The notes below the pieces were generated by a model that worked only from the letters and a program-made list of their open reading frames with translations, was not told where the DNA came from and did not search any database. Below are positions 3,555-34,750 of a stretch of 40,320 nt of DNA, one piece after another. The stretch is from the UHGV virus genome UHGV-1432856. One strand, given 5' to 3'. Source of the DNA: a virus. Each line of letters begins with the position of its first letter. The first letter of the stretch is position 1. A program made the translations under genes and the position numbers.

Positions 3555-3883
3555 CAGTTCACCACCTGTTCAAACTCTGCGCTGAACTCAACACGTAACA
3601 TACTGACCCGCGACGACCATTTTGCGCAGGTCACCTTTATCTGCCTGTAACCATAAGGCGGCGTCCACAGAAAGCCCTTCCAGCCCCCGTGCTCAGCCAG
3701 AAACGACTCCAGCGCTGTTGCCTCCTCGCGGGAGACAGAAAGCGTCACGCTGTACGTTTTCAGGTTGGCATTCAGCCCGGCAGGCGCTCGCTGGGAATAG
3801 CCATCACCAAAGCGCACCTTTCTTACAGAAGGGGCCGAAGCCACATCCATACCGGGTTTCACTTTCCAGCGGAAGGTTTTCAT
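3554..3883 (-). CDS. M: minor tail protein M
   Basis: 109 aa, MKTFRWKVKPGMDVASAPSVRKVRFGDGYSQRAPAGLNANLKTYSVTLS... matches lambda gpM; start overlaps H stop. Confidence 0.9.
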   Translation of the reverse strand: MKTFRWKVKPGMDVASAPSVRKVRFGDGYSQRAPAGLNANLKTYSVTLSVSREEATALESFLAEHGGWKGFLWTPPYGYRQIKVTCAKWSSRVSMLRVEFSAEFEQVVN

Positions 3884-6441
3884 CGTCCACCTCCGGAGAA
3901 CAGGCCACCATCACGCATCTGTGTCTGAATTTCATCACGGGCACCCTTGCGGGCCATGTCATACACCGCCTTCAGAGCAGCCGGACCTATCTGCCCGTTC
4001 GTGCCGTCGTTGTTAATCACCACATGGTTATTCTGCTCAAACGTCCCGGACGCCTGCGACCGGCTGTCAGCCAGACTGCCCGGTGTACCGACATAACCAC
4101 CGGTGGCATAGCCGCGCATCAGCCGGTAGAGATTCCCCACGCCAATCCGGCTGGTTGCCTCCTTCGTGAAGACAAATTCACCACGGTGAACAATCCCCGC
4201 TGGCTCATATTTGCCGCCGGTTCCTGTGAATCCTCCGGTTGCAAAATGGAATTTCGCCGCAGCGGCCTGAATGGCTGTACCGCCTGACGCGGATGCGCCG
4301 CCACCAACAGCCCCGCCAATGGCGCTGCCGATACTCCCGACAATCCCCACCATTGCCTGCTTAAGCAGAATTTCTGTCATCATGGACAGCACGGAACGGG
4401 TGAAGCTGCGCCAGTTCTGCTCACTGCCGGTCAGCATCGCTGCCATATTCTGTGCAATACCATCAAAGGTCTGCGTGGCTGCACTTTTTACCTGCGACAT
4501 ACTGTCCGTGGCGCTCTCTTCCCACTCACTCCAGCCGGACTTCAGGCCTGCCATCCAGCTCCCGCGAAGCTGGTCTTCAGCCGCCCAAGTCTTTTTCTGC
4601 TCTGACATGACGTTATTCAGCGCCAGCGGATTATCGCCATACTGTTCCTTCAGGCGCTGTTCCGTGGCTTCCCGTTCTGCCTGCCGGTCAGTCAGCCCCC
4701 GGCTTTTCGCATCAATGGCGGCCCGTTTTGCCCGTTGCTGCTGTGCGAATTTATCCGCCTGCTGCGCCAGCGCGTTCAGGCGCTCCTGATACGTAACCTT
4801 GTCGCCAAGTGCAGCCAGCTGGCGTTTGTACTCCAGCGTCTCATCTTTATGCGCCAGCAGGGATTTCTCCTGTGCAGACAGCTGGCGACGTTGCGCCGCC
4901 TCCTCCAGTACCGCGAACTGACTCTCCGCCTTCCACAAATCCCGGCGCTGCTGGCTGATTTTCTCATTTGCTCCGGCATGCTTCTCCAGCGTCCGGAGTT
5001 CTGCCTGAAGCGTCAGCAGGGCAGCATGAGCACTGTCTTCCTGACGATCGCCCGCAGACACCTTCACGCCGGACTGTTTCGGCTTTTTCAGCGTCGCTTC
5101 ATAATCCTTTTTCGCCGCCGCCATCAGCGTGTTGTAATCCGCCTGCAGGATTTTCCCGTCTTTCAGTGCCTTGTTCAGTTCTTCCTGACGGGCGGTATAT
5201 TTCTCCAGCGGCGTCTGCAGCCGTTCGTAAGCCTTCTGCGCCTCTTCGGTATATTTCAGCCGTGACGCTTCGGTATCGCTCTGCTGCTGCGCATTTTTGT
5301 CCTGTTGAGTCTGCTGCTCAGCCTTCTTTCGGGCGGCTTCAAGCGCAAGACGGGCCTTTTCACGATCATCCCAGTAACGCGCCCGCGCTTCATCGTTAAC
5401 AAAATAATCATCCTTGCGCAGATTCCAGATGTCGTCTGCTTTCTTAAACGCAGCCTCTGCCTTAATCAGCATCTCCTGCGCGGTATCAGGACGACCAATA
5501 TCCAGCACCGCATCCCACATGGATTTGAAGGCCCGCGCTGTCCTGTCTGCCCAGGTCTCCAGCGTGCCCATGTTCTCTTTCAGGCGGCGGGTCTGGTCAT
5601 CAAACCCTTTCGTTGCGGCCTCGTTCGCCGCCTGCAATGCCCCGGCTTCATCGCCGGAACGCTGCAACTGAGCAACATACGCAATCTGCTCCGCCGTCAC
5701 GTTATGGAACTGGCGTGCCATCGCTGTCAGCCCTGACGTCGGGTCTGTGGTCAGCTTCCCGAAGGCTTCAGCGACCTTGTCCACCTCCACGCCGGATGCA
5801 GAAGAGAAACGCGCCACACTCTGGCTGATGGACGCAATCTGAGCCTCACCGCTTACCCCCGCCTTAACCAGTGCACTGAGTGACTCGCTGGTCTGGTTAA
5901 ACGTCAGCCCTGCCGCCTGCCCGGCTCTGGACAGGACCAGCATACGATCTGCCGTCAGACCCGACTGATTACCGGAAAGGACCAGCGTTTTGTTGAAATC
6001 GGACAGGGTTGAGTCACCCTGATACCAGGCATACGCCAGCGCACCGGTCGCCACCGCCAGCGAGGTGGCCCCGACCATCGGCAGGGTGATCGCACCGGCA
6101 AGCCCCCGGAACATGGGGATCATCCCGCCGAAGGAGTCCTTAACCTGACCACCCTGTTGCAGCAGGATCAGCCACGGGCTTTGCCCGCCTGCAAGCTGCG
6201 TGGCCACGTCGGTGAACTGTGCAGGCAGCATACGCATGGCGGCTTTATACTGCCCGACGGAAATCCCCGCTTTCTGTGCAGCCAGCGCCTGTCGGCTCAG
6301 CGACTTTTCAACGACTGCCGCTGTTTTTTTCGCATCAGTTTCCGTGCCGGAAAAATGACGCCTGACTCTGGCCATCTGCTCGTCAAATCTGGCCGCATCC
6401 AGACTTAAATCAACGACCAGATCGCCTACCGGTTCAGCCAT
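3880..6441 (-). CDS. H: tail tape measure protein H
   Basis: 853 aa, the same length as lambda gpH; coiled-coil-rich centre and glycine-rich hydrophobic C-terminal segment; 8-nt overlap with the upstream T frame as in lambda. Confidence 0.95.
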   Translation of the reverse strand: MAEPVGDLVVDLSLDAARFDEQMARVRRHFSGTETDAKKTAAVVEKSLSRQALAAQKAGISVGQYKAAMRMLPAQFTDVATQLAGGQSPWLILLQQGGQVKDSFGGMIPMFRGLAGAITLPMVGATSLAVATGALAYAWYQGDSTLSDFNKTLVLSGNQSGLTADRMLVLSRAGQAAGLTFNQTSESLSALVKAGVSGEAQIASISQSVARFSSASGVEVDKVAEAFGKLTTDPTSGLTAMARQFHNVTAEQIAYVAQLQRSGDEAGALQAANEAATKGFDDQTRRLKENMGTLETWADRTARAFKSMWDAVLDIGRPDTAQEMLIKAEAAFKKADDIWNLRKDDYFVNDEARARYWDDREKARLALEAARKKAEQQTQQDKNAQQQSDTEASRLKYTEEAQKAYERLQTPLEKYTARQEELNKALKDGKILQADYNTLMAAAKKDYEATLKKPKQSGVKVSAGDRQEDSAHAALLTLQAELRTLEKHAGANEKISQQRRDLWKAESQFAVLEEAAQRRQLSAQEKSLLAHKDETLEYKRQLAALGDKVTYQERLNALAQQADKFAQQQRAKRAAIDAKSRGLTDRQAEREATEQRLKEQYGDNPLALNNVMSEQKKTWAAEDQLRGSWMAGLKSGWSEWEESATDSMSQVKSAATQTFDGIAQNMAAMLTGSEQNWRSFTRSVLSMMTEILLKQAMVGIVGSIGSAIGGAVGGGASASGGTAIQAAAAKFHFATGGFTGTGGKYEPAGIVHRGEFVFTKEATSRIGVGNLYRLMRGYATGGYVGTPGSLADSRSQASGTFEQNNHVVINNDGTNGQIGPAALKAVYDMARKGARDEIQTQMRDGGLFSGGGR

Positions 6442-14559: not shown

Positions 14560-14868
14560 TTACAAACGACTACCTGAAATAACTCGTTGGTTGATTTCGT
14601 TAATACGATCCTGTGCACGCGCCATCTCGTGACTGTGAGCCATGGCGATCTGTAGTAACTGGATTCCCGGTGCGAAACGTCCGTTCTCTAATTTCATGGC
14701 CAGTCCCTCTTCAATAAGGGTATTAAGTGCTCGATTGATATTCGCCGGGGACTCCCCCAGGGCTGATGCCAGTTCACCGTTAGAAACACCGTTCAGAGCA
14801 TGACCGCGTAGAGCTTTGAGTACACGTAGGATGCGGGTCCCAGAACTGGAAATATTTACTTTACTCAT
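14560..14868 (-). CDS. winged-helix DNA-binding protein (IclR-N/MarR-like HTH)
   Basis: LRVLKALRGHALNGVSNGELASALGESPANINRALNTLIEEG HTH pattern; start taken at MSKVNISS (14866-14868); the track's longer start at 14931 would overlap the upstream gene. Confidence 0.5.
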   Translation of the reverse strand: MSKVNISSSGTRILRVLKALRGHALNGVSNGELASALGESPANINRALNTLIEEGLAMKLENGRFAPGIQLLQIAMAHSHEMARAQDRINEINQRVISGSRL

Positions 14869-14920
14869 GTCACATTTCCATTTTTGCAATATGTGATAAC
14901 CTGTTGCATATGTGGAAAAT

Positions 14921-15109
14921 TTATGCCGCATTTGACGTGGGTTTTAATCCCAGTTTTACGGCAATTTCATGGGCTTTGCCGTAACGAGCTTTGGTCTGTC
15001 CATTGAGAACACGATAGACCTCATTGCGGCTGTAGCCGTGTTCTTCGGCCCAGCGGGTAAACGTGATACCACGCTGACGGAAGAGATTTTTAACTTGTTC
15101 GGAAGTCAT
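14921..15109 (-). CDS. small HTH DNA-binding protein in the Cro/Ner position
   Basis: 62 aa, first gene of the leftward operon, divergent from the XRE repressor; AGGAG RBS; not clearly homologous to Mu Ner, assigned by position and HTH-like pattern. Confidence 0.55.
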   Translation of the reverse strand: MTSEQVKNLFRQRGITFTRWAEEHGYSRNEVYRVLNGQTKARYGKAHEIAVKLGLKPTSNAA

Positions 15110-15159
15110 TGTTGTCTCCTTTGTTGATGCAATGATGTTTGTTTTATATGTGATAGATT

Positions 15160-15179
15160 ATGAGAACTATTGTTCTCAT
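15160..15179. promoter_or_regulatory. putative operator: inverted repeat ATGAGAAC-TATT-GTTCTCAT
   Basis: Perfect 8-bp arms with 4-bp spacer, inside the 86-bp divergent region between the Cro/Ner-like and repressor genes. Confidence 0.45.
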
Positions 15180-15195
15180 TGTCAATGAGGTTTAT

Positions 15196-15621
15196 GTGAA
15201 TTTTGATTCTCTTTGCGCGTCGCGGTTCAAAGCTGAGCGTTCGCGGTTATCACTCAAGCAGGCTGAAGTAGCAGCCCTTTGTGGCGTTTCAAGAGAAATG
15301 TGGGGGAAATATGAACGAGGGGTTGCTGTTCCCGGAGGTGAGTTACTTGCAGCCTTTGCAAGAATTGGGGCCAATGTACAGTTCATTCTTACCGGGGAGT
15401 CATCAGGTATAACTTTATCACGTGATGAAATGGAGTTACTGCAGCACTACCGGCAGGCACCATTACAGGTCAAAGGTTCAGTTTTGTCGGCCTTGACTAC
15501 TGGCTCCTCCAGAGAACGGGCGGAACAGGTTATTCATGGAGATGTTCTGGGGAATGTTATCAAAGGTAACGTAACCATAGGAACAGGTGGAATAATGAAC
15601 AAAAATACCAAGAGAAGATGA
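15196..15621 (+). CDS. XRE-family HTH transcriptional regulator, probable prophage repressor
   Basis: HTH LSLKQAEVAALCGVSREMWGKYERG; start placed at GTG 15196 (GAGG at 5 nt spacing); the track ORF starts at ATG 15160 inside the palindrome; divergent from the early operon. Confidence 0.65.
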   Translation: MNFDSLCASRFKAERSRLSLKQAEVAALCGVSREMWGKYERGVAVPGGELLAAFARIGANVQFILTGESSGITLSRDEMELLQHYRQAPLQVKGSVLSALTTGSSRERAEQVIHGDVLGNVIKGNVTIGTGGIMNKNTKRR

Positions 15622-16604
15622 GTAAAGAGAAGCAAACAGTTAACGGGGATGTGGGTAACGTTGTCAGCGGTGATGTTACCATTCATAACTATTCTGCTGA
15701 CATACTTCCTTCGGCCCAGCAACCAATTTCGTTGCTGCAAAAACGCGATTTACACAGATTGATGGATGAATTGGTTGATCTGGGGGAAAGTAAGCGCGAG
15801 CTATGGATGACGATCCACACGAAACTTAATACCAAAACAGTTAATGAAATGACTGCGGCTGATTATCATGGTGCGGTTGAGATCCTTCAGAGATATGCAC
15901 AACAGATCCAGAATATGAAGGACTGTAATCTTCTGGTCAGCAAAATAATGGCGCTTACTGACCCTGGGTATCGTCTTGACCGTGACAGATACTGTCTGAA
16001 GCATTTCGGTACAACCCATCTTAAAGGCCTAGACAAAGAGCAGTTGCAGGCTGTGTTTGGTTATTTTGATGATCTGCTGAATATTCGTGATGAGAGTAAA
16101 ACTCTATCACCTCCATCGGAAAGCGGTGCAAAATCAGTCGCAACTGTACCAACCAGAAGCCGGAAGCCTCATGTAGTAGTGTTGGGGGGAGTGTTAGTTC
16201 TTGTAGCAATATTTTTCGTGGGAATGATTGTGTTCGCTGGTAAATGGGGAAATGCCAAAGCAGTAGCTTCTACTGAAACCAGCGTTTTTAACATTAAAAC
16301 CAACGATAAAATAATAGAAGATTCCATCCCCGCACTGCGCAGCATGTTTCCAGGGTTAAATAAGTACTCAGATGATTTCCATTCGGTTTCAAGCTACAAG
16401 CAAAAAACGGGCTGGCATACCCTTAAATTTACTGTATCAGCAAAGGCATCCGTCCCCGAAAATTATAGTGTTAAGGGCAAGGTTTGTTACATTAACATAA
16501 GCCCTGATGGTAGTTATGCTCGGGTTTTGACTGCTCCATGTCGTTCACTGCTACTTGATCAGCAAAGCACTCCTGACAGTAAATACCGTTTTATTCTTAA
16601 ATAG
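15618..16604 (+). CDS. single-pass membrane protein of unknown function, translationally coupled to the repressor
   Basis: 328 aa; ATGA overlap with the repressor stop; one TM helix (VVVLGGVLVLVAIFFVGMIVFA) between a roughly 185-aa N-terminal and 120-aa C-terminal domain; N-terminal GDV/GNV repeat; AT-rich. Confidence 0.6.
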   Translation: MSKEKQTVNGDVGNVVSGDVTIHNYSADILPSAQQPISLLQKRDLHRLMDELVDLGESKRELWMTIHTKLNTKTVNEMTAADYHGAVEILQRYAQQIQNMKDCNLLVSKIMALTDPGYRLDRDRYCLKHFGTTHLKGLDKEQLQAVFGYFDDLLNIRDESKTLSPPSESGAKSVATVPTRSRKPHVVVLGGVLVLVAIFFVGMIVFAGKWGNAKAVASTETSVFNIKTNDKIIEDSIPALRSMFPGLNKYSDDFHSVSSYKQKTGWHTLKFTVSAKASVPENYSVKGKVCYINISPDGSYARVLTAPCRSLLLDQQSTPDSKYRFILK

Positions 16605-16694
16605 AAAATAACAGCTGAATTACCATGGGATCAGAAAAAAGACAAAGGCGGCATCATGCTGCGTTCTGAAATTTTAATGTAAAAGGTGATGAAC

Positions 16695-17276
16695 ATGGCA
16701 GGGATTCAGGTTATCGCAGGAAGTTTTCCTAAAGGGTGGGCAAGCATGGGGTTCGGTACCATCGTGTTTGCCAAAAAACCAAAACAAGGCTTTCCTGAAA
16801 ATATTGTATTAAATCTGAAAGAAGAGCTTTTATCGATTGAACTTGCGGATAGTGAAGAGGAAAGCCGTATAGGTAAGGCGGCAGGCGCAGGTTTGCTTGG
16901 TGGATTAATCTTTGGTGGTGCAGGGTTGGTCATTGGAGGTTTGCTTGGTGCGGCGGACAAGACGAAAAAAACTATCACTTTTAAGGCAATGTTTACGGGA
17001 AATAGGTTACTTCTGGCTAAAACAGATTCAAAAACTTTTGTAAAACTTCAGTCAATTGCTGCTGATAATGCCCATAACGCATCTGTAATCAACATGAAGC
17101 AAACTAACAGGGGCGATGTTTCTTCTCGTAAACAACTAACAGAAAATCCACAGCAGCAAGACTTACCTGCGCCCGCTACAACAGTAAAAATGACTGCCAA
17201 AGATAAGTTAGAATCGGCTCTTGGGCTGGGAATCATCGTTATAGCTGTTTGGGCAATAATACACTTCTTTTTTTAG
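16695..17276 (+). CDS. glycine-zipper membrane protein of unknown function
   Basis: GKAAGAGLLGGLIFGGAGLVIGGLLGAA glycine zipper plus C-terminal hydrophobic helix LGLGIIVIAVWAIIHFFF; start chosen at ATG 16695 (AGGTG upstream); AT-rich. Confidence 0.55.
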   Translation: MAGIQVIAGSFPKGWASMGFGTIVFAKKPKQGFPENIVLNLKEELLSIELADSEEESRIGKAAGAGLLGGLIFGGAGLVIGGLLGAADKTKKTITFKAMFTGNRLLLAKTDSKTFVKLQSIAADNAHNASVINMKQTNRGDVSSRKQLTENPQQQDLPAPATTVKMTAKDKLESALGLGIIVIAVWAIIHFFF

Positions 17277-17278
17277 TG

Positions 17279-17302
17279 CAGCCCTTCAGGGCTGTTTCTG
17301 TT
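17279..17302 (+). terminator. Rho-independent terminator ending the repressor-linked cassette
   Basis: CAGCCC-TTCA-GGGCTG hairpin followed by TTTCTGTT, 3 nt after the stop at 17276. Confidence 0.5.
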
Positions 17303-17313
17303 CAGGAGGTATC

Positions 17314-17790
17314 TTAAGGATTATCCGGGGCGTTTTCCTGTTTGCCGTACTTCGGAGACGAACAACATTCTGTTGGCTGACCGGTGAGTTTACGTAACTC
17401 CTTCATGAGCAGCTCCTGATCGTAAACTGTCATCAGTGCCGCAATGGTGGCATGCAGTGCATCGGGCAGTATCCAGGGTTGCCGGCCCGTGGGGCATATA
17501 ACATCCAGCAGCTCATTCGTCCGACAGATACGCTCCTCGCCGTATGACAACAGGCCCTGTCCCGTGTATTCCTCCAGCCTGATCACTGTGCCACCCCGTG
17601 GCTTCTGCCAGGTCGTCAGATCTTCGCCATTCATACGGCGCTCATTCTCCACGTCAGCAGCATCGACAATGACGCTGTTTCCGAGTTCCTGTTTCACCAT
17701 CTCTTCTATCCGCGCCAGTACGTAACTTTTACCGCTGCCCACAGGACCGGACACAGTGACAGTGATGACCGGATTCAGTGTGTGCGTCAT
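17314..17790 (-). CDS. small P-loop protein, NMP/shikimate-kinase-like
   Basis: 158 aa; Walker A GPVGSGKS at residues 15-22 followed closely by VIVDAADVE, resembling small P-loop kinases; strong GAGGAG RBS; convergent with the cassette. Confidence 0.55.
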   Translation of the reverse strand: MTHTLNPVITVTVSGPVGSGKSYVLARIEEMVKQELGNSVIVDAADVENERRMNGEDLTTWQKPRGGTVIRLEEYTGQGLLSYGEERICRTNELLDVICPTGRQPWILPDALHATIAALMTVYDQELLMKELRKLTGQPTECCSSPKYGKQENAPDNP

Positions 17791-17849
17791 ATCGTATTCT
17801 CCTCTGTGAATAATTCATCGTTTATCCTGCACATCCCGTATCCCCGGCT

Positions 17850-17870
17850 CTCTTAACGCGCTTTAAAATC
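17850..17870 (+). promoter_or_regulatory. degenerate copy of the late-region motif, upstream of the lysis genes
   Basis: CTCTTAA-CGCG-CTTTAAAATC, about 50 nt upstream of the ATG at 17921; compare 31232-31253 and 37583-37604. Confidence 0.3.
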
Positions 17871-17920
17871 CTTCGCGCCCTGTATTTGTGATGCTGTCTC
17901 CACCAGATAAGGAGACACAC

Positions 17921-18214
17921 ATGAAAAACCTGAAAAAATTCATTCCCCCTGTTAAAAAACCTCGCCTCAGCGGCTGGCTGCTGACCTCAGTGCTGTTGCT
18001 GGGCACCATCGCTCTGGTCTCACCACAGCAGCTGCCTGTTGTGATCTACAAGCTGGCACTCATCACGCTGGCAGCAGTGCTGGGTTACTGGCTTGACCGT
18101 TCGCTCTTCCCCAAAGCCCGTCCCGGTCAGTACCTGAAACATGACGACAGGCTGATGGCTGAAGGGCGTTTCCCGGTACAGACCGGCCTTCACCTGGTGT
18201 TTTCTGCTGCGTAA
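17921..18214 (+). CDS. small two-TM membrane protein, putative holin
   Basis: Start MKNLKKF with AAGGAG RBS; two hydrophobic helices; directly upstream of the endolysin; the track ORF starts at 17888. Confidence 0.45.
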   Translation: MKNLKKFIPPVKKPRLSGWLLTSVLLLGTIALVSPQQLPVVIYKLALITLAAVLGYWLDRSLFPKARPGQYLKHDDRLMAEGRFPVQTGLHLVFSAA

Positions 18215-18273
18215 ATCCGCCGTGCACTGATTGTTGCAGCGGTCTGCCTGGCTGTTGCGATGGGGCTTTAATC

Positions 18274-19014
18274 ATGAACTGGCCGCAGATCACCTGGATT
18301 GTATGCATGTCCCTGAAACTGGCTTTCGAAGCCTTTCGGGTCTTCATCAGAACCGAACGCCTGTCAGTCCGCGCCGGGACCTTTCTGGTTCATATGGCAT
18401 GGGTATTCTTTGTCGCAATGTTGCTCTGGTGTGGCGGCTTTTTTAGCCAGGCATGCGCAGCACAACCTCCGCAGGCTGCGCTGCAGTATCGCGATGATGT
18501 GATCCGTAATGCCCGGCTTGAATGGGGACTGTCTGCGCCGGTGGCCGATTTCGCCGCGCAACTGCATCAGGAAAGCGGCTGGCGACCTGATGCGATCTCG
18601 CCGGCTGGCGCTCAGGGACTGGCGCAGTTCATGCCTGCCACTGCCGACTGGATAAGCCAGTTGATACCGATGCTGAGCAGTCGTGAGCCGTTTAATCCGG
18701 CATGGGCTATCCGGGCGCTGGTCAGCTATGACCGCTGGCTGTGGCAGCGTGTCAGCGCCGCCAGTGACTGCGAGCGTATGGCCATGACACTGTCGGGCTA
18801 TAACGGTGGTCTGGGCTGGGTACAACGGGACAGGCGGCTTGCATCACAGAAAGGTCTGGACAGCACCCGCTGGTTCGGACATGTCGCCACGGTGAATGCC
18901 GGACGCAATGCGGCCAGCTGGCGGGAGAACCGCCATTATCCGCAGCGCATCCTGCGCGAACTGGCACCGCGATATCTCACATGGGGAGGCAGCAGTTGTG
19001 TGGCATCTGGTTAA
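18274..19014 (+). CDS. endolysin, lytic transglycosylase (SLT domain) with N-terminal hydrophobic anchor or signal
   Basis: SLT-like motif AQLHQESGWRPDAISPAGAQGLAQFMP; N-terminal hydrophobic stretch; start uncertain (18274 or 18394). Confidence 0.7.
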   Translation: MNWPQITWIVCMSLKLAFEAFRVFIRTERLSVRAGTFLVHMAWVFFVAMLLWCGGFFSQACAAQPPQAALQYRDDVIRNARLEWGLSAPVADFAAQLHQESGWRPDAISPAGAQGLAQFMPATADWISQLIPMLSSREPFNPAWAIRALVSYDRWLWQRVSAASDCERMAMTLSGYNGGLGWVQRDRRLASQKGLDSTRWFGHVATVNAGRNAASWRENRHYPQRILRELAPRYLTWGGSSCVASG

Positions 19015-31798: not shown

Positions 31799-34750
31799 AT
31801 GTCGGGACAGTTTTCAGTCGGCGTTGTTATCGGCGGGATGATTGGTAGCACATTCCGTTCTGCAATGAGCGGTACCCGCCGTGCGCTTGATTCCCTGAGC
31901 GATACCTCACGCCGCCTGCAGGAACGTCAGAACGCTTTAACCCGTGCAACAGAACGTTATGGTCAACTGGGTTCTTCCCGGATGCAGCATCTCAACAGCG
32001 AGCTGCTGCGGGTAAGCCGCACCATGGAGCAAATTGAGCGCCAGCAGCGCCGTCTGTCAGCGGCATCCGCTACCAGTGATGCGCTGAAAGCTAACCGCAT
32101 GGCGCTGTATGGTCAGGGGATTGAAGCGTATGGCATGGCACAGACTGTTTATCATACGGTTTCCCCTGCCGTTCAGCAGTCCATGTCTTTTCAGGACAAA
32201 ATGATTGATATGTCGATCACCGCAAAATATGACAATAAAACGCGGGATGCACTTGCCGGACAGATAAAAGGCTGGGCGCTTAAATACAATCAGTATCAGG
32301 ATGAGCTGCAGGAGGCGGTGGGTTCACTCATCAGCGACAATATTGATAATGTGTCAGATATCGGTTTTCTGATGCCGGATATTGCCCGCGCGGCAACGGC
32401 AACACGCACGTCTGCTCAGGACTGGGCAAAAGTGGCCGCAGTCTGGCAAAACTCCCTGAAAGGTGCGGCCAGAGATTTTGGTGCCGTTCAGAATATTATG
32501 GCTTATGCCGGTGACCAGGGGTCATTTGAAATCCCGGATCAGGTCAAGTGGATGCAGTCCCTGGCCCCAATGATGGCGGGTATTGCCAGTGGAAAAGAGG
32601 CTGTTGCTGAAATCGGGGCCAGTCTCCAGATAGCAAAAATCGGTGCAGGTTCCACCGACGAAGCAGCCAATAATTTTAAAAACTTTCTTACCAAAATTTT
32701 TGCCCGCGATACTCAGAAACAGTTTGCTGATCTGGGTATTGATTTGCAGGGATCTATTGCGAGTTATAAAGCTGCGGGGATCTCTCCGATTGAAGGGATG
32801 TTGAGTGTTATAGAACGTTACCTCAATGCCAAAAGCCCCGAAGCGCTGGCCGGCTTCAAATCAGCCATGAAAATAAAGAATGATACGGCAAGAGATGAGG
32901 CACTTCAGGCTCTGGCGAAAAACTTTGGTCTGGGCGATATGTTCGCGGATATGCAGGTCATGGCATTTATCCGCCCGATGCTGGCCAACATGGACAGATA
33001 TCGAGAGATCCGTGCCGGTGCTCTCAGGGCTGCGGATAACGATTTGCTTGCCAGTGCTTATGATCAGCGGCTGAAATCTCCCCTTGAAGCCACTAAAGCA
33101 CTTATGGTCAGCAGTCGTGATCTGGCAATTACGCTGGGCGATCAATTAGCTCCATCTTTTATTTCTCTGACTCAGGAACTGCTTCCACTCATTCAGGGGG
33201 CAAAACACTGGGTAGCGACTCACCCGCAATTTGTCAGTGGGGCTTTTAAGCTCATCAGTGCGCTCCTTGCGATTAAGATAGCGACTGTTGGTCTCAAACT
33301 GGGGCTGAATCTCCTTATTTCCCCCTTTGTAAGTGTCTGGAAAAATGCTGTTTTACTTCGGGCCAACTGGCTTCGTCTGTCGCTCGCACTGGGGCAAGGC
33401 GGTAAGCTCCGCTGGCTGGTGACCGGATTTAGCGCCGTCGCCAAAGGAGCCAGAACACTGAGTGGCGTGCTCTCCGGGGGGCTGGTTCGCGGAATTATGC
33501 TCGCCGGACGTGCTGTTCTCTGGATTGGACGTGCGCTGATGATGAATCCCATCGGTCTCGTTATCACCGCTGTCGCGGCAGCAGCTTACCTTATCTACCG
33601 CAACTGGGGGGCAGTCAGTGGCTGGTTTAAACAGCGCTGGGCAGACATTCAGGAAGCCTTTAACGGCGGCATTGTGGGAATTGGTAAGTTGCTGATTAAC
33701 TGGTCGCCGGCAGGCCTGCTCTATAAAGCCTTTGCGGCTGCGCTGAAATATTTCGGCGTTGCTCTGCCGGCAAAGTTCACCGACTTCGGTGGCCATCTTA
33801 TCGACGGTCTGATTAACGGTATCAAAAACAAATGGGGGTCGCTCAAATCCAGTGTAACCGGAATGGGTGACAGCATCAGTAGCTGGTTTAAACAGTGCTG
33901 GGCTGACATTCAGGAAGCCTTTAACGGCGGTATCGCGGGAACTGGTAAGCTGCTGATTAACTGGTCGCCGGCAGGTCTGCTCTATAAAGCCTTTGCAGCT
34001 GCGCTGAAATATCTTGGTGTTGATCTGCCGGCAAAGTTCACCGACTTCGGTGGCCATCTTGTCGACGGTCTGATTAACGGTATCAAAAACAAATGGGAGT
34101 CGCTCAAATCCAGTGTAACCGGAATGGGTGACAGCATCAGTGGCTGGTTCAGCGAAAAGCTGGGCATTCATTCGCCGAGCCGCGTGTTTATGGGCTTTGG
34201 TGACAATATCGCGCAGGGGGCCGCCATTGGCCTGCAGCGGACCACTCCGCTTGCAGCTCTGGCCGGGCAGCGAATGGCCAGTGAACTGCTCCCCAAAATG
34301 CCCGTGAGCATTCAGGGGCCAGAAATACGGGATAACACTTCAGGTGTTCGCTTCAGTATGCCGTTGCCCGATATCAATGGGTTTATGTCGTCTGCTAAAA
34401 ATGCGATCGGAGCCGTAATCAATAGTTTGTCTTCCATGCCCGCTATTCCGCTCTCCACCCGGGCATCGATTTTACCAGGGCAACGTCTGGCAAATGAGAT
34501 GACACCGGATGTTCCCCGTATCCCCTCGCCTGAAATCCTGGCTGCCGGATATTCAGGCCGTGGTGCAGCTGCAACCGGCGGTGGAACGTCTGGTGGTATC
34601 CAGGTCAGCTTTAATCCTCAGTTTTTCCTCAATGGCAGGGAAACCACAGCGCCTGCCGGACTGACTGGCGCCCTGAATATGAGCCTGCATGAGCTGGAAA
34701 AAATGCTGGAGCGTCTGCTGGCTCAGAAACAACGTAAGGAGTACCGCTGA
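31799..34750 (+). CDS. tail tape measure protein
   Basis: 983 aa, helical and repeat-rich; between the chaperone and N-like gene; GGAGG RBS. Confidence 0.85.
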   Translation: MSGQFSVGVVIGGMIGSTFRSAMSGTRRALDSLSDTSRRLQERQNALTRATERYGQLGSSRMQHLNSELLRVSRTMEQIERQQRRLSAASATSDALKANRMALYGQGIEAYGMAQTVYHTVSPAVQQSMSFQDKMIDMSITAKYDNKTRDALAGQIKGWALKYNQYQDELQEAVGSLISDNIDNVSDIGFLMPDIARAATATRTSAQDWAKVAAVWQNSLKGAARDFGAVQNIMAYAGDQGSFEIPDQVKWMQSLAPMMAGIASGKEAVAEIGASLQIAKIGAGSTDEAANNFKNFLTKIFARDTQKQFADLGIDLQGSIASYKAAGISPIEGMLSVIERYLNAKSPEALAGFKSAMKIKNDTARDEALQALAKNFGLGDMFADMQVMAFIRPMLANMDRYREIRAGALRAADNDLLASAYDQRLKSPLEATKALMVSSRDLAITLGDQLAPSFISLTQELLPLIQGAKHWVATHPQFVSGAFKLISALLAIKIATVGLKLGLNLLISPFVSVWKNAVLLRANWLRLSLALGQGGKLRWLVTGFSAVAKGARTLSGVLSGGLVRGIMLAGRAVLWIGRALMMNPIGLVITAVAAAAYLIYRNWGAVSGWFKQRWADIQEAFNGGIVGIGKLLINWSPAGLLYKAFAAALKYFGVALPAKFTDFGGHLIDGLINGIKNKWGSLKSSVTGMGDSISSWFKQCWADIQEAFNGGIAGTGKLLINWSPAGLLYKAFAAALKYLGVDLPAKFTDFGGHLVDGLINGIKNKWESLKSSVTGMGDSISGWFSEKLGIHSPSRVFMGFGDNIAQGAAIGLQRTTPLAALAGQRMASELLPKMPVSIQGPEIRDNTSGVRFSMPLPDINGFMSSAKNAIGAVINSLSSMPAIPLSTRASILPGQRLANEMTPDVPRIPSPEILAAGYSGRGAAATGGGTSGGIQVSFNPQFFLNGRETTAPAGLTGALNMSLHELEKMLERLLAQKQRKEYR
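33613..34134 (+). repeat. in-frame tandem duplication, 2 x 261 bp, inside the tape measure gene
   Basis: SGWFKQRWADIQEAFNGGI...GIKNKWGSLKSSVTGMGDSIS repeated with few substitutions at an exact 261-nt offset (33622 versus 33883). Confidence 0.8.

Follow-up and report, generated by a model that had tools for sequence, protein, structure and literature searches.

The DNA analyzed here, the 40,320-nucleotide UHGV virus genome UHGV-1432856 (called the window when its full length is meant), contains a transposable prophage of Mu type, complete and belonging to the BcepMu group, that adjoins grxA in Escherichia coli. Its immunity region encodes a helix-turn-helix (HTH) repressor and, directly downstream, a 328-amino-acid (aa) membrane protein whose N-terminus carries a short motif nearly identical to one in the C-terminal tail of the repressor. 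Pairing of this kind, with the partner gene directly downstream of an HTH repressor gene, was found across ∼100 loci in the Enterobacterales and Pseudomonadales. We give an even chance to the reading that repressor and partner interact through the motif, which would link the lysogeny switch to the membrane. An earlier, sequence-only reading of this DNA had proposed an AT-rich three-gene cassette (15618 to 17790), coupled to the repressor, as a candidate exclusion or defense module expressed in lysogens. The three genes are referred to here by product size as g328, g196 (196 aa), and g158 (a 158-aa P-loop protein). The three genes do not make up a cassette of the kind first proposed, but the membrane protein coupled to the repressor is real.

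The motif QVIHGDVLGNVIKGNVTI (15526 to 15579, plus strand) lies within the repressor's C-terminal tail, QVIHGDVLGNVIKGNVTIGTGG, and its counterpart QTVNGDVGNVVSGDVTI (15633 to 15683, plus strand) stands at the N-terminus of g328. Local alignment of the two protein ends gave a score of 55, compared with 17.8 ± 4.1 for shuffled controls. Across 96 loci (39 after dereplication), the median cognate score was 54 (shuffled, 17.8 ± 4.1, maximum 39), and 0 of 20000 permutations of the partners matched the observed total. The similarity is kept at the protein level, since 95 of 164 shared residues (58%) are encoded by different codons, as are 7 of 11 in the window pair. Four or more motif classes co-vary between repressor tail and partner: GDVxGNVxxGxVTI, QQFNGxVxxVxxGD, FNGxxxGQF..IIN, and NRxAGRD[YF]. 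At locus L012, the tail QIFNGDISGQFAGNQIIN is paired with the partner N-terminus QEFNGTAQGQFSSRDIIN, and at L019 QQFNGPVGGVTSGDVVN is paired with QQFNGAVKQVAAGDIKN. Many other pairs combine a tail of the form ..VSGxGNRVAGRDYNE with a partner of the form ..NSxGxxNRxAGRDFxE; this last class also has an AGRDL/AGRDL variant in Pseudomonas-group genomes, with AGRDY or AGRDF on both sides in the others. Relative to background, the motifs are rich in N (3.0×), G (2.2×), and V (1.6×) and poor in K (0.35×), L (0.10×), and P (0.08×), with Q at 1.15× and I at 0.75×.

The association also emerged when loci were collected from repressor HTH domains alone. Tabulating the presence of a partner with a Flk_N-like domain, the type found in g328 (see below), against the presence of a matching repressor tail gave counts of 17/1/4/38 (Fisher P = 2.5e-10). 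The 4 exceptions encode other small membrane proteins with the same motif, and repressors lacking such a partner have no tail motif. Proteins without Flk_N whose motif matches the upstream repressor tail were seen at L122, L156, L154/L162, L194, L195, and L189; they include products of 69, 84, 160, 146, and 118 aa, some Cys-rich or membrane-bound, and L189 encodes two consecutive motif-bearing membrane proteins.

Both copies of the motif are strongly conserved. Across six orthologues, the repressor tail motif is near-invariant, the only changes being one N to D and one I to M within GDVLGNVIKGNVTIG, and it is better conserved than the HTH halves of the same proteins, which are only 65 to 94% identical. 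Among 18 homologues of g328 (44 to 82% identity), residues G10, G13 to G18, V20, I22, and Y25 are invariant; the motif is thus fixed within the family while the neighboring linker varies. This pattern bears on the idea that the motif copies are an evolutionary relic, left by duplication at the gene boundary or by the splitting of a membrane-bound repressor, and no longer interact. The copies do lie 50 to 100 nucleotides apart in the same orientation, and a single ancestor of the order HTH-motif-Flk_N-transmembrane segment is conceivable, purely as an inference. We nevertheless regard a relic as very unlikely: both copies stay near-invariant within lineages in which linkers and even the HTH diverge, the shared residues differ in codons as described above, the motif classes co-vary across two bacterial orders, and small partner proteins of unrelated types bear the motif as well. 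Three narrower explanations were considered and rejected. A programmed frameshift fusing repressor and g328 would set two copies of the motif in tandem and explains nothing, recent gene conversion between the copies is contradicted by the codon differences, and recognition of both copies by a common host protease does not agree with motifs that vary among phages sharing a host but correspond within every pair.

The genetic linkage is conserved as well. The repressor reading frame ends in AGA AGA TGA, and the g328 start codon at 15618 falls within the resulting ATGA overlap, as the sequence-only reading had seen. The repressor and a g328 homologue with this 4-bp overlap are kept together in E. 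coli, Yersinia, Serratia, and Salmonella, and the gene that follows differs. Because this translational coupling is conserved, g328 should be made in lysogens. The earlier expectation that g328 is made whenever the repressor is agrees with this; g196 lies downstream of g328 in the same direction and may be cotranscribed with the repressor. In Pectobacterium and other BcepMu-like prophages, the gene at this position encodes a shorter, tail-anchored Flk_N relative, and a Flk_N partner also follows the immunity repressor of a P2-like phage, so that repressor and partner move between different phage types as one module. The module was found in prophages of E. coli, Salmonella, Yersinia, Serratia, Pectobacterium, and Pseudomonas. 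In the P2-like Escherichia phage 520873 (NC_049344; L014, ∼3790 to 4600), the Flk_N-like gene is split over three frames and carries no annotation in the deposited record; 13 IMG/VR relatives have an intact copy of 216 aa. The constant occurrence of g328 with one repressor family and a co-varying motif argues for a role in the immunity switch.

The g328 gene (15618 to 16604, plus strand) encodes a predicted bitopic inner membrane protein. In an AlphaFold2 (AF2) model, two confident domains (residues 31 to 158, helical, and 221 to 328, alpha/beta; pLDDT of >90) are joined by a linker and a membrane helix. The earlier description of g328 as a single-pass membrane protein was borne out by one strong hydrophobic segment (residues ∼186 to 208; 16173 to 16241, plus strand), modeled as a helix over residues 189 to 207 and preceded on its N-terminal side by the basic residues RSRKPH. 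The helical domain (residues ∼28 to 152; 15699 to 16073, plus strand) is predicted to be cytoplasmic. Profile and sequence comparisons indicate its homology to the N-terminal domain of Flk, a regulator of flagella: it matches NCBIfam Flk (NF007987) with an E value of 2.9e-12, restricted to residues 19 to 147 of g328 and positions 14 to 143 of the 339-position profile; E. coli K-12 Flk by BLASTP with an E value of 1e-5 over residues 28 to 152; and the same protein by hhalign with a probability of 75% and an E value of 2.5e-5. Precomputed Pfam matches to Flk_N (PF27202) are recorded for P0001, the identical cluster representative, and for several homologues; the match is marked as weak for P0017 and is unmarked for the short relative P0071.

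This homology raises the question of whether g328 is an agent of lysogenic conversion that acts, like Flk, on flagellar type III export and alters motility or flagellin display. Residues 19 to 152 are homologous to the Flk N-terminal domain, and Flk, which is cytoplasmic and anchored to the membrane, inhibits the flagellar secretion switch (PMC13344023). We consider such a function very unlikely: the NF007987 match, at 46.6 bits, is far short of the equivalog cut-off of 353 bits, g328 has one Flk repeat only and a different architecture, the motif common to g328 and the repressor would play no part, and there is no flagellar gene context. The host protein (E. coli K-12 flk; L011, 3951 to 4943) gave a subthreshold Pfam match to Mu GemA (PF06252; E value of 7e-4, residues 120 to 282), from which Flk and GemA may be distantly related; the window prophage carries its own gp16/GemA-family protein.

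The two halves of g328 are separate modules, as shown by a profile search of 1.8 billion representatives. The close g328 family is small, with 24 clusters, all from the Enterobacterales, while the N-terminal half defines a large family of 185- to 270-aa proteins made up of a short N-terminal motif, a Flk_N-like domain, and a C-terminal tail anchor. The alpha/beta domain (residues ∼221 to 328; 16278 to 16601, plus strand), with invariant Cys290 and Cys308, is probably periplasmic, because it recurs as stand-alone lipoproteins with a lipobox. In some loci (L012, L026, L154, and L162), such a lipoprotein gene follows the Flk_N partner, which provides a gene-fusion link between the halves; at most loci with a Flk_N partner, the periplasmic domain is absent. 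The stand-alone lipoproteins (L012, 5597 to 6544; L013, 4486 to 5019; P0073; P0085; P0087) often end in a conserved, Cys-containing sequence, LPPTPDxKPPRxGC...W(S/T)CP, a tail that g328 does not have. A distant homologue of the domain, P0112, is fused to two Ltp repeats (PF07553, 5.5e-28), and Klebsiella phage KP12 encodes the domain alone, directly after its repressor. In g328 itself there is no PF07553 match and no lipobox. Fold searches and a PDB sequence search returned no informative structural relative for either g328 domain. By tblastn, relatives of g328 in deposited phages occur in only two genomes and their relatives, and the family is therefore essentially unstudied; the database names of these proteins are all "hypothetical." Literature on Flk-like phage proteins, BcepMu repressor partners, and glycine-zipper exclusion proteins yielded nothing relevant and no description of the pairing.

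Comparison with related prophages placed recombination breakpoints at 15161/15162, 16615, 16681, 17313/17326, and 17850, and these indicate a mosaic in which three units have been exchanged independently. In a Dam-type variant, and also in phage PhiKM, homology ends at 15161 and resumes at 17326, so the swapped block comprises the repressor, g328, g196, and a hairpin. Strain 504211 (L004) shares the repressor and g328 up to 16615, followed by other genes, and strain A33 (L005) shares everything up to 17313; neither has the P-loop gene. Citrobacter and Enterobacter prophages share only g196 (16681 to 17077), directly after a different CI-type repressor. Of 636 E. coli genomes that carry a prophage of this type, 99 have the whole block. 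Among those of the others that were sampled, most (27 of 40 listed rows) have another repressor, Dam, and a full-length P-loop gene, and 463 genomes fall in the 90 to 95% identity band. The proposal of three genes forming one unit is contradicted by breakpoints at each gene boundary and by the assortment of g196 independently of g328.

Base composition does not delimit a cassette either. The G+C content of g328 (0.429) and g196 (0.423) is low, but that of g158 (0.545) is that of the backbone (window mean, 0.553), and the repressor (0.459) and neighboring regulators (0.46 to 0.48) are AT-rich as well.

The g196 gene (16695 to 17276, plus strand) encodes 193 aa from the ATG at 16695 or 196 aa from a GTG at 16686. 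Its product is a membrane protein, probably of the PH_gly_zipper family, with a C-terminal membrane helix (∼17205 to 17273, plus strand) and the glycine zipper AAGAGLLGGLIFGGAGLVIGGLLGAA (∼16878 to 16955, plus strand) that the sequence-only reading had correctly recognized. Precomputed Pfam matches to PH_gly_zipper (PF27000) exist for P0026 and P0027, which are 97% identical to g196, and weakly for P0032 and P0033; the AF2 model of g196 (pLDDT of 36) is too poor to judge its fold. Two near-identical homologues, P0030 and P0031, have clean deletions of 11 and 16 residues within the glycine zipper, the length of which therefore appears to be unstable or tolerated. The breakpoints at 16615/16681 and 17313 mark g196 as an independent add-on gene.

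Between g196 and the convergent g158 lies a GC-rich, terminator-like hairpin (17278 to 17295, plus strand; 7-bp stem, 5 GC) followed by TTCTGTTC. It moves with g196, as L005 homology continues through it to 17313. The terminator that had been placed here thus corresponds to a real hairpin, but terminator-like sites are no commoner in this DNA than shuffling of the sequence would give (3 present, 4.5 expected).

The g158 gene (17314 to 17790, minus strand) does encode a P-loop protein, with the Walker A motif GPVGSGKS at 17725 to 17748, and has the strong ribosome-binding site attributed to it, AGGAG 7 nucleotides before the ATG. It does not belong to a cassette. The protein consists of the first 153 residues of a commoner protein of 242 to 247 aa (clusters of 785, 243, and 124 members) and then five unrelated residues. 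Given this identity and its match to positions 1 to 157 of the 242-position phrog_3787, g158 is a 3′-truncated allele, retaining the 5′ two-thirds of a phage-backbone gene cut at a recombination junction and unlinked to the other two genes. DNA homology of g158 to Dam-type prophages begins at 17326, and the full-length form is found also with other immunity types. Its Pfam and NCBIfam matches cover the Walker A region only and fall below cut-offs, and a search of PDB sequences found no relative, as was also the case for g328 and g196. The database name "ABC transporter ATPase" is unsupported by these sequence comparisons, as is an assignment to the KAP NTPases.

The main competing explanation is a narrower form of the earlier proposal, in which g328 and g196 would be envelope proteins expressed in lysogens for superinfection exclusion or abortive infection, acting by blocking the entry of DNA or by killing the infected cell, and would be linked to the repressor for coexpression only. 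The genes lie between the immunity and lysis modules, at a variable cargo site in this phage group, and both products are membrane-located. The periplasmic domain occurs as a stand-alone lipoprotein, after the KP12 repressor, and fused to Ltp repeats, whose fold is known from an exclusion lipoprotein, and g196 moves as a self-contained add-on. Against this, exclusion leaves unexplained both the co-varying motif of repressor tail and g328 and the tie of g328-type proteins to one repressor family across unrelated phage types, and most Flk_N partners have no periplasmic part. PADLOC-DB 2.0 returned no meaningful match for any of the three genes (best E value for g328, 0.014; none for g196; P-loop-level matches only for g158, with E values of ≥0.007). 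On balance, we think exclusion unlikely as the explanation of the locus as a whole; judged by analogy, an exclusion or defense role is possible for g328 or g196, especially for g196 and for the periplasmic domain. The claim that the proteins match no named defense family stands insofar as no PADLOC system was matched, but they are not without recognizable relatives: all three have full-length PHROG family matches, g328 is Flk_N-like, and g196 has PH_gly_zipper relatives. Likewise, the position between immunity and lysis modules is indeed a cargo site, but g328 is not a free-standing defense add-on.

In the motif-mediated interaction that we favor, the repressor and g328 would form a two-protein immunity module, translated in step. 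The N-terminal motif of g328 would pair with the near-identical tail motif of the repressor by homotypic beta-strand pairing, possibly with templated, amyloid-like assembly; the quantity of free repressor, or its activity, would in this way depend on an event in the membrane or periplasm. Such a module would tune immunity or trigger induction and would not attack incoming phage; g196 would be a separate, lysogen-expressed add-on. We commit to the motif-mediated interaction only, with amyloid behavior as a possibility, because the pair joins new kinds of partner and has a motif core below the length known from amyloid systems. A more specific version, suggested by analogy, seems to us quite unlikely. 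The motif pair would be specificity-coded and would resemble amyloid signaling: a stimulus at the membrane or in the periplasm, for instance envelope damage or superinfection, would cause the partner to nucleate beta-structure, which would capture and inactivate the repressor and flip the switch. If true, induction by this pathway would be independent of RecA, no signaling-motif pair before it would have had a transcription factor as effector, and the motif classes would insulate co-resident prophages from each other.

Several observations weigh against an interaction through the motif or its amyloid-like form. The Ltp-repeat fusion in P0112 and the stand-alone domain of KP12 fit an exclusion role at least as well. 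The motif core (∼18 aa) is shorter than typical amyloid motifs of ∼25 aa and is enriched in neither Q nor I, and the partners are an HTH repressor and a Flk_N membrane protein, not a receptor and a cell death effector. About 8 of the 39 dereplicated pairs have no match, some of these being artifacts of automatic picking of open reading frames (ORFs). The motif segment is disordered in the AF2 monomer model of g328 (pLDDT of ∼42), and the upstream gene is identified as the putative immunity repressor only from its position and HTH domain. What makes the interaction worth pursuing is that the induction decision is poorly understood in those Mu-like and many P2-like prophages that have no cleavable repressor of the LexA type. 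A conserved repressor tail together with a motif-bearing membrane protein may supply the missing induction input.

The repressor gene (15160 to 15621, plus strand; 153 aa as annotated) encodes an Xre/CI-type protein with its HTH at residues 22 to 68 and matches to Pfam HTH_31 (4.7e-7) and phrog_8. It is transcribed divergently from the early transposase operon, from whose Ner-like gene it is separated by a divergent regulatory region (15110 to 15195). Within that region lie a promoter-like site on the minus strand (15185 to 15157) and an inverted repeat (15153 to 15167 and 15172 to 15186) that is likely an operator. The annotated ATG at 15160 falls inside both the repeat and the promoter-like site. 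The true start is probably the GTG at 15196, giving a protein of 141 aa, because the Salmonella orthologue begins at the equivalent position.

On the minus strand, the early genes of the prophage encode a Ner-like protein, an IclR-type HTH protein, a DUF3102 protein, the transposase, an ExeA-like ATPase, Gam, and Mor. The plus strand carries the genes for the repressor, g328, and g196 and then a holin, an SLT endolysin, Rz-like genes, and late genes, with g158 lying between g196 and the holin on the minus strand. The window DNA was found identical in many complete E. coli genomes, and the nearest deposited phage is PhiKM, classified as a Bcepmuvirus. From position 1 to ∼6600, the window is host chromosome (mdfA, ybjH-J, rcdA, ybjL, ybjM, and grxA), and the Mor-side end of the prophage abuts grxA. 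The tape measure ORF (31799 to 34750) is intact in the window, with 983 aa. In strain AR_0015, whose sequence otherwise equals that of the window across the compared region (14560 to 18300), its annotation is that of a pseudogene in two fragments. A comparison of the whole window with Rfam matched no RNA family, and no relevant tandem repeats were found.

Among known systems, Flk (Fluke/RflH) of Salmonella and E. coli resembles g328 in its N-terminal helical domain, which is cytoplasmic and held by a single inner membrane helix, and in a G/N-rich segment before that domain. It differs in having two repeats and, as a cytoplasmic protein of ∼330 aa, in ending with a tail anchor at the C-terminus and lacking a periplasmic domain (PMC13344023), whereas the membrane helix of g328 at residues 186 to 208 leads into ∼110 further residues that are modeled confidently as a domain and include the conserved pair of cysteines. 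Flk is also chromosomal, next to pdxB, and has no repressor pairing. The Ltp exclusion lipoproteins of TP-J34 are, like g328, prophage-encoded and face the periplasm or cell surface, and a homologue of the g328 periplasmic domain carries fused Ltp repeats; g328 itself differs in having neither an Ltp repeat nor a lipobox. Lambda rexAB and P22 sieB lie, as g328 does, directly downstream of the immunity repressor gene, are coexpressed with it, and encode membrane products. They have no sequence relationship to g328, which has no PADLOC match and is inseparable from its repressor family, and to our knowledge the Rex proteins share no motif with CI.

We know of one documented layout in which a short motif rich in N, G, and V and poor in K, L, and P ends one protein and begins the product of the adjacent gene, and this is the amyloid signaling pair, demonstrated recently in the Bab/Agp system. 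Amyloid signaling motifs are rich in Q, N, G, V, and I, poor in K, P, and L, and ∼25 aa long, and in Bab/Agp, an anti-phage system of E. coli, one protein has a C-terminal motif and the product of the neighboring gene has an N-terminal one. The pair described here departs from this type in its carriers: the C-terminal motif is borne by a DNA-binding repressor in place of a pore-forming death domain, the N-terminal motif is borne by a tail-anchored or bitopic Flk_N protein in place of an NLR/STAND or TPR sensor, and the motif core is ∼18 aa in length. The likeness, which rests on sequence, to BASS motifs, Bab/Agp, and the fungal HET-S/NWD2 pair is that two adjacent genes encode the same motif at the C-terminus of one product and the N-terminus of the other, with N, G, and V abundant and K, L, and P scarce, several partner domains, and an occurrence in prophages. 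If it extends to function, matched-motif signaling would reach beyond cell death defense to transcriptional control.

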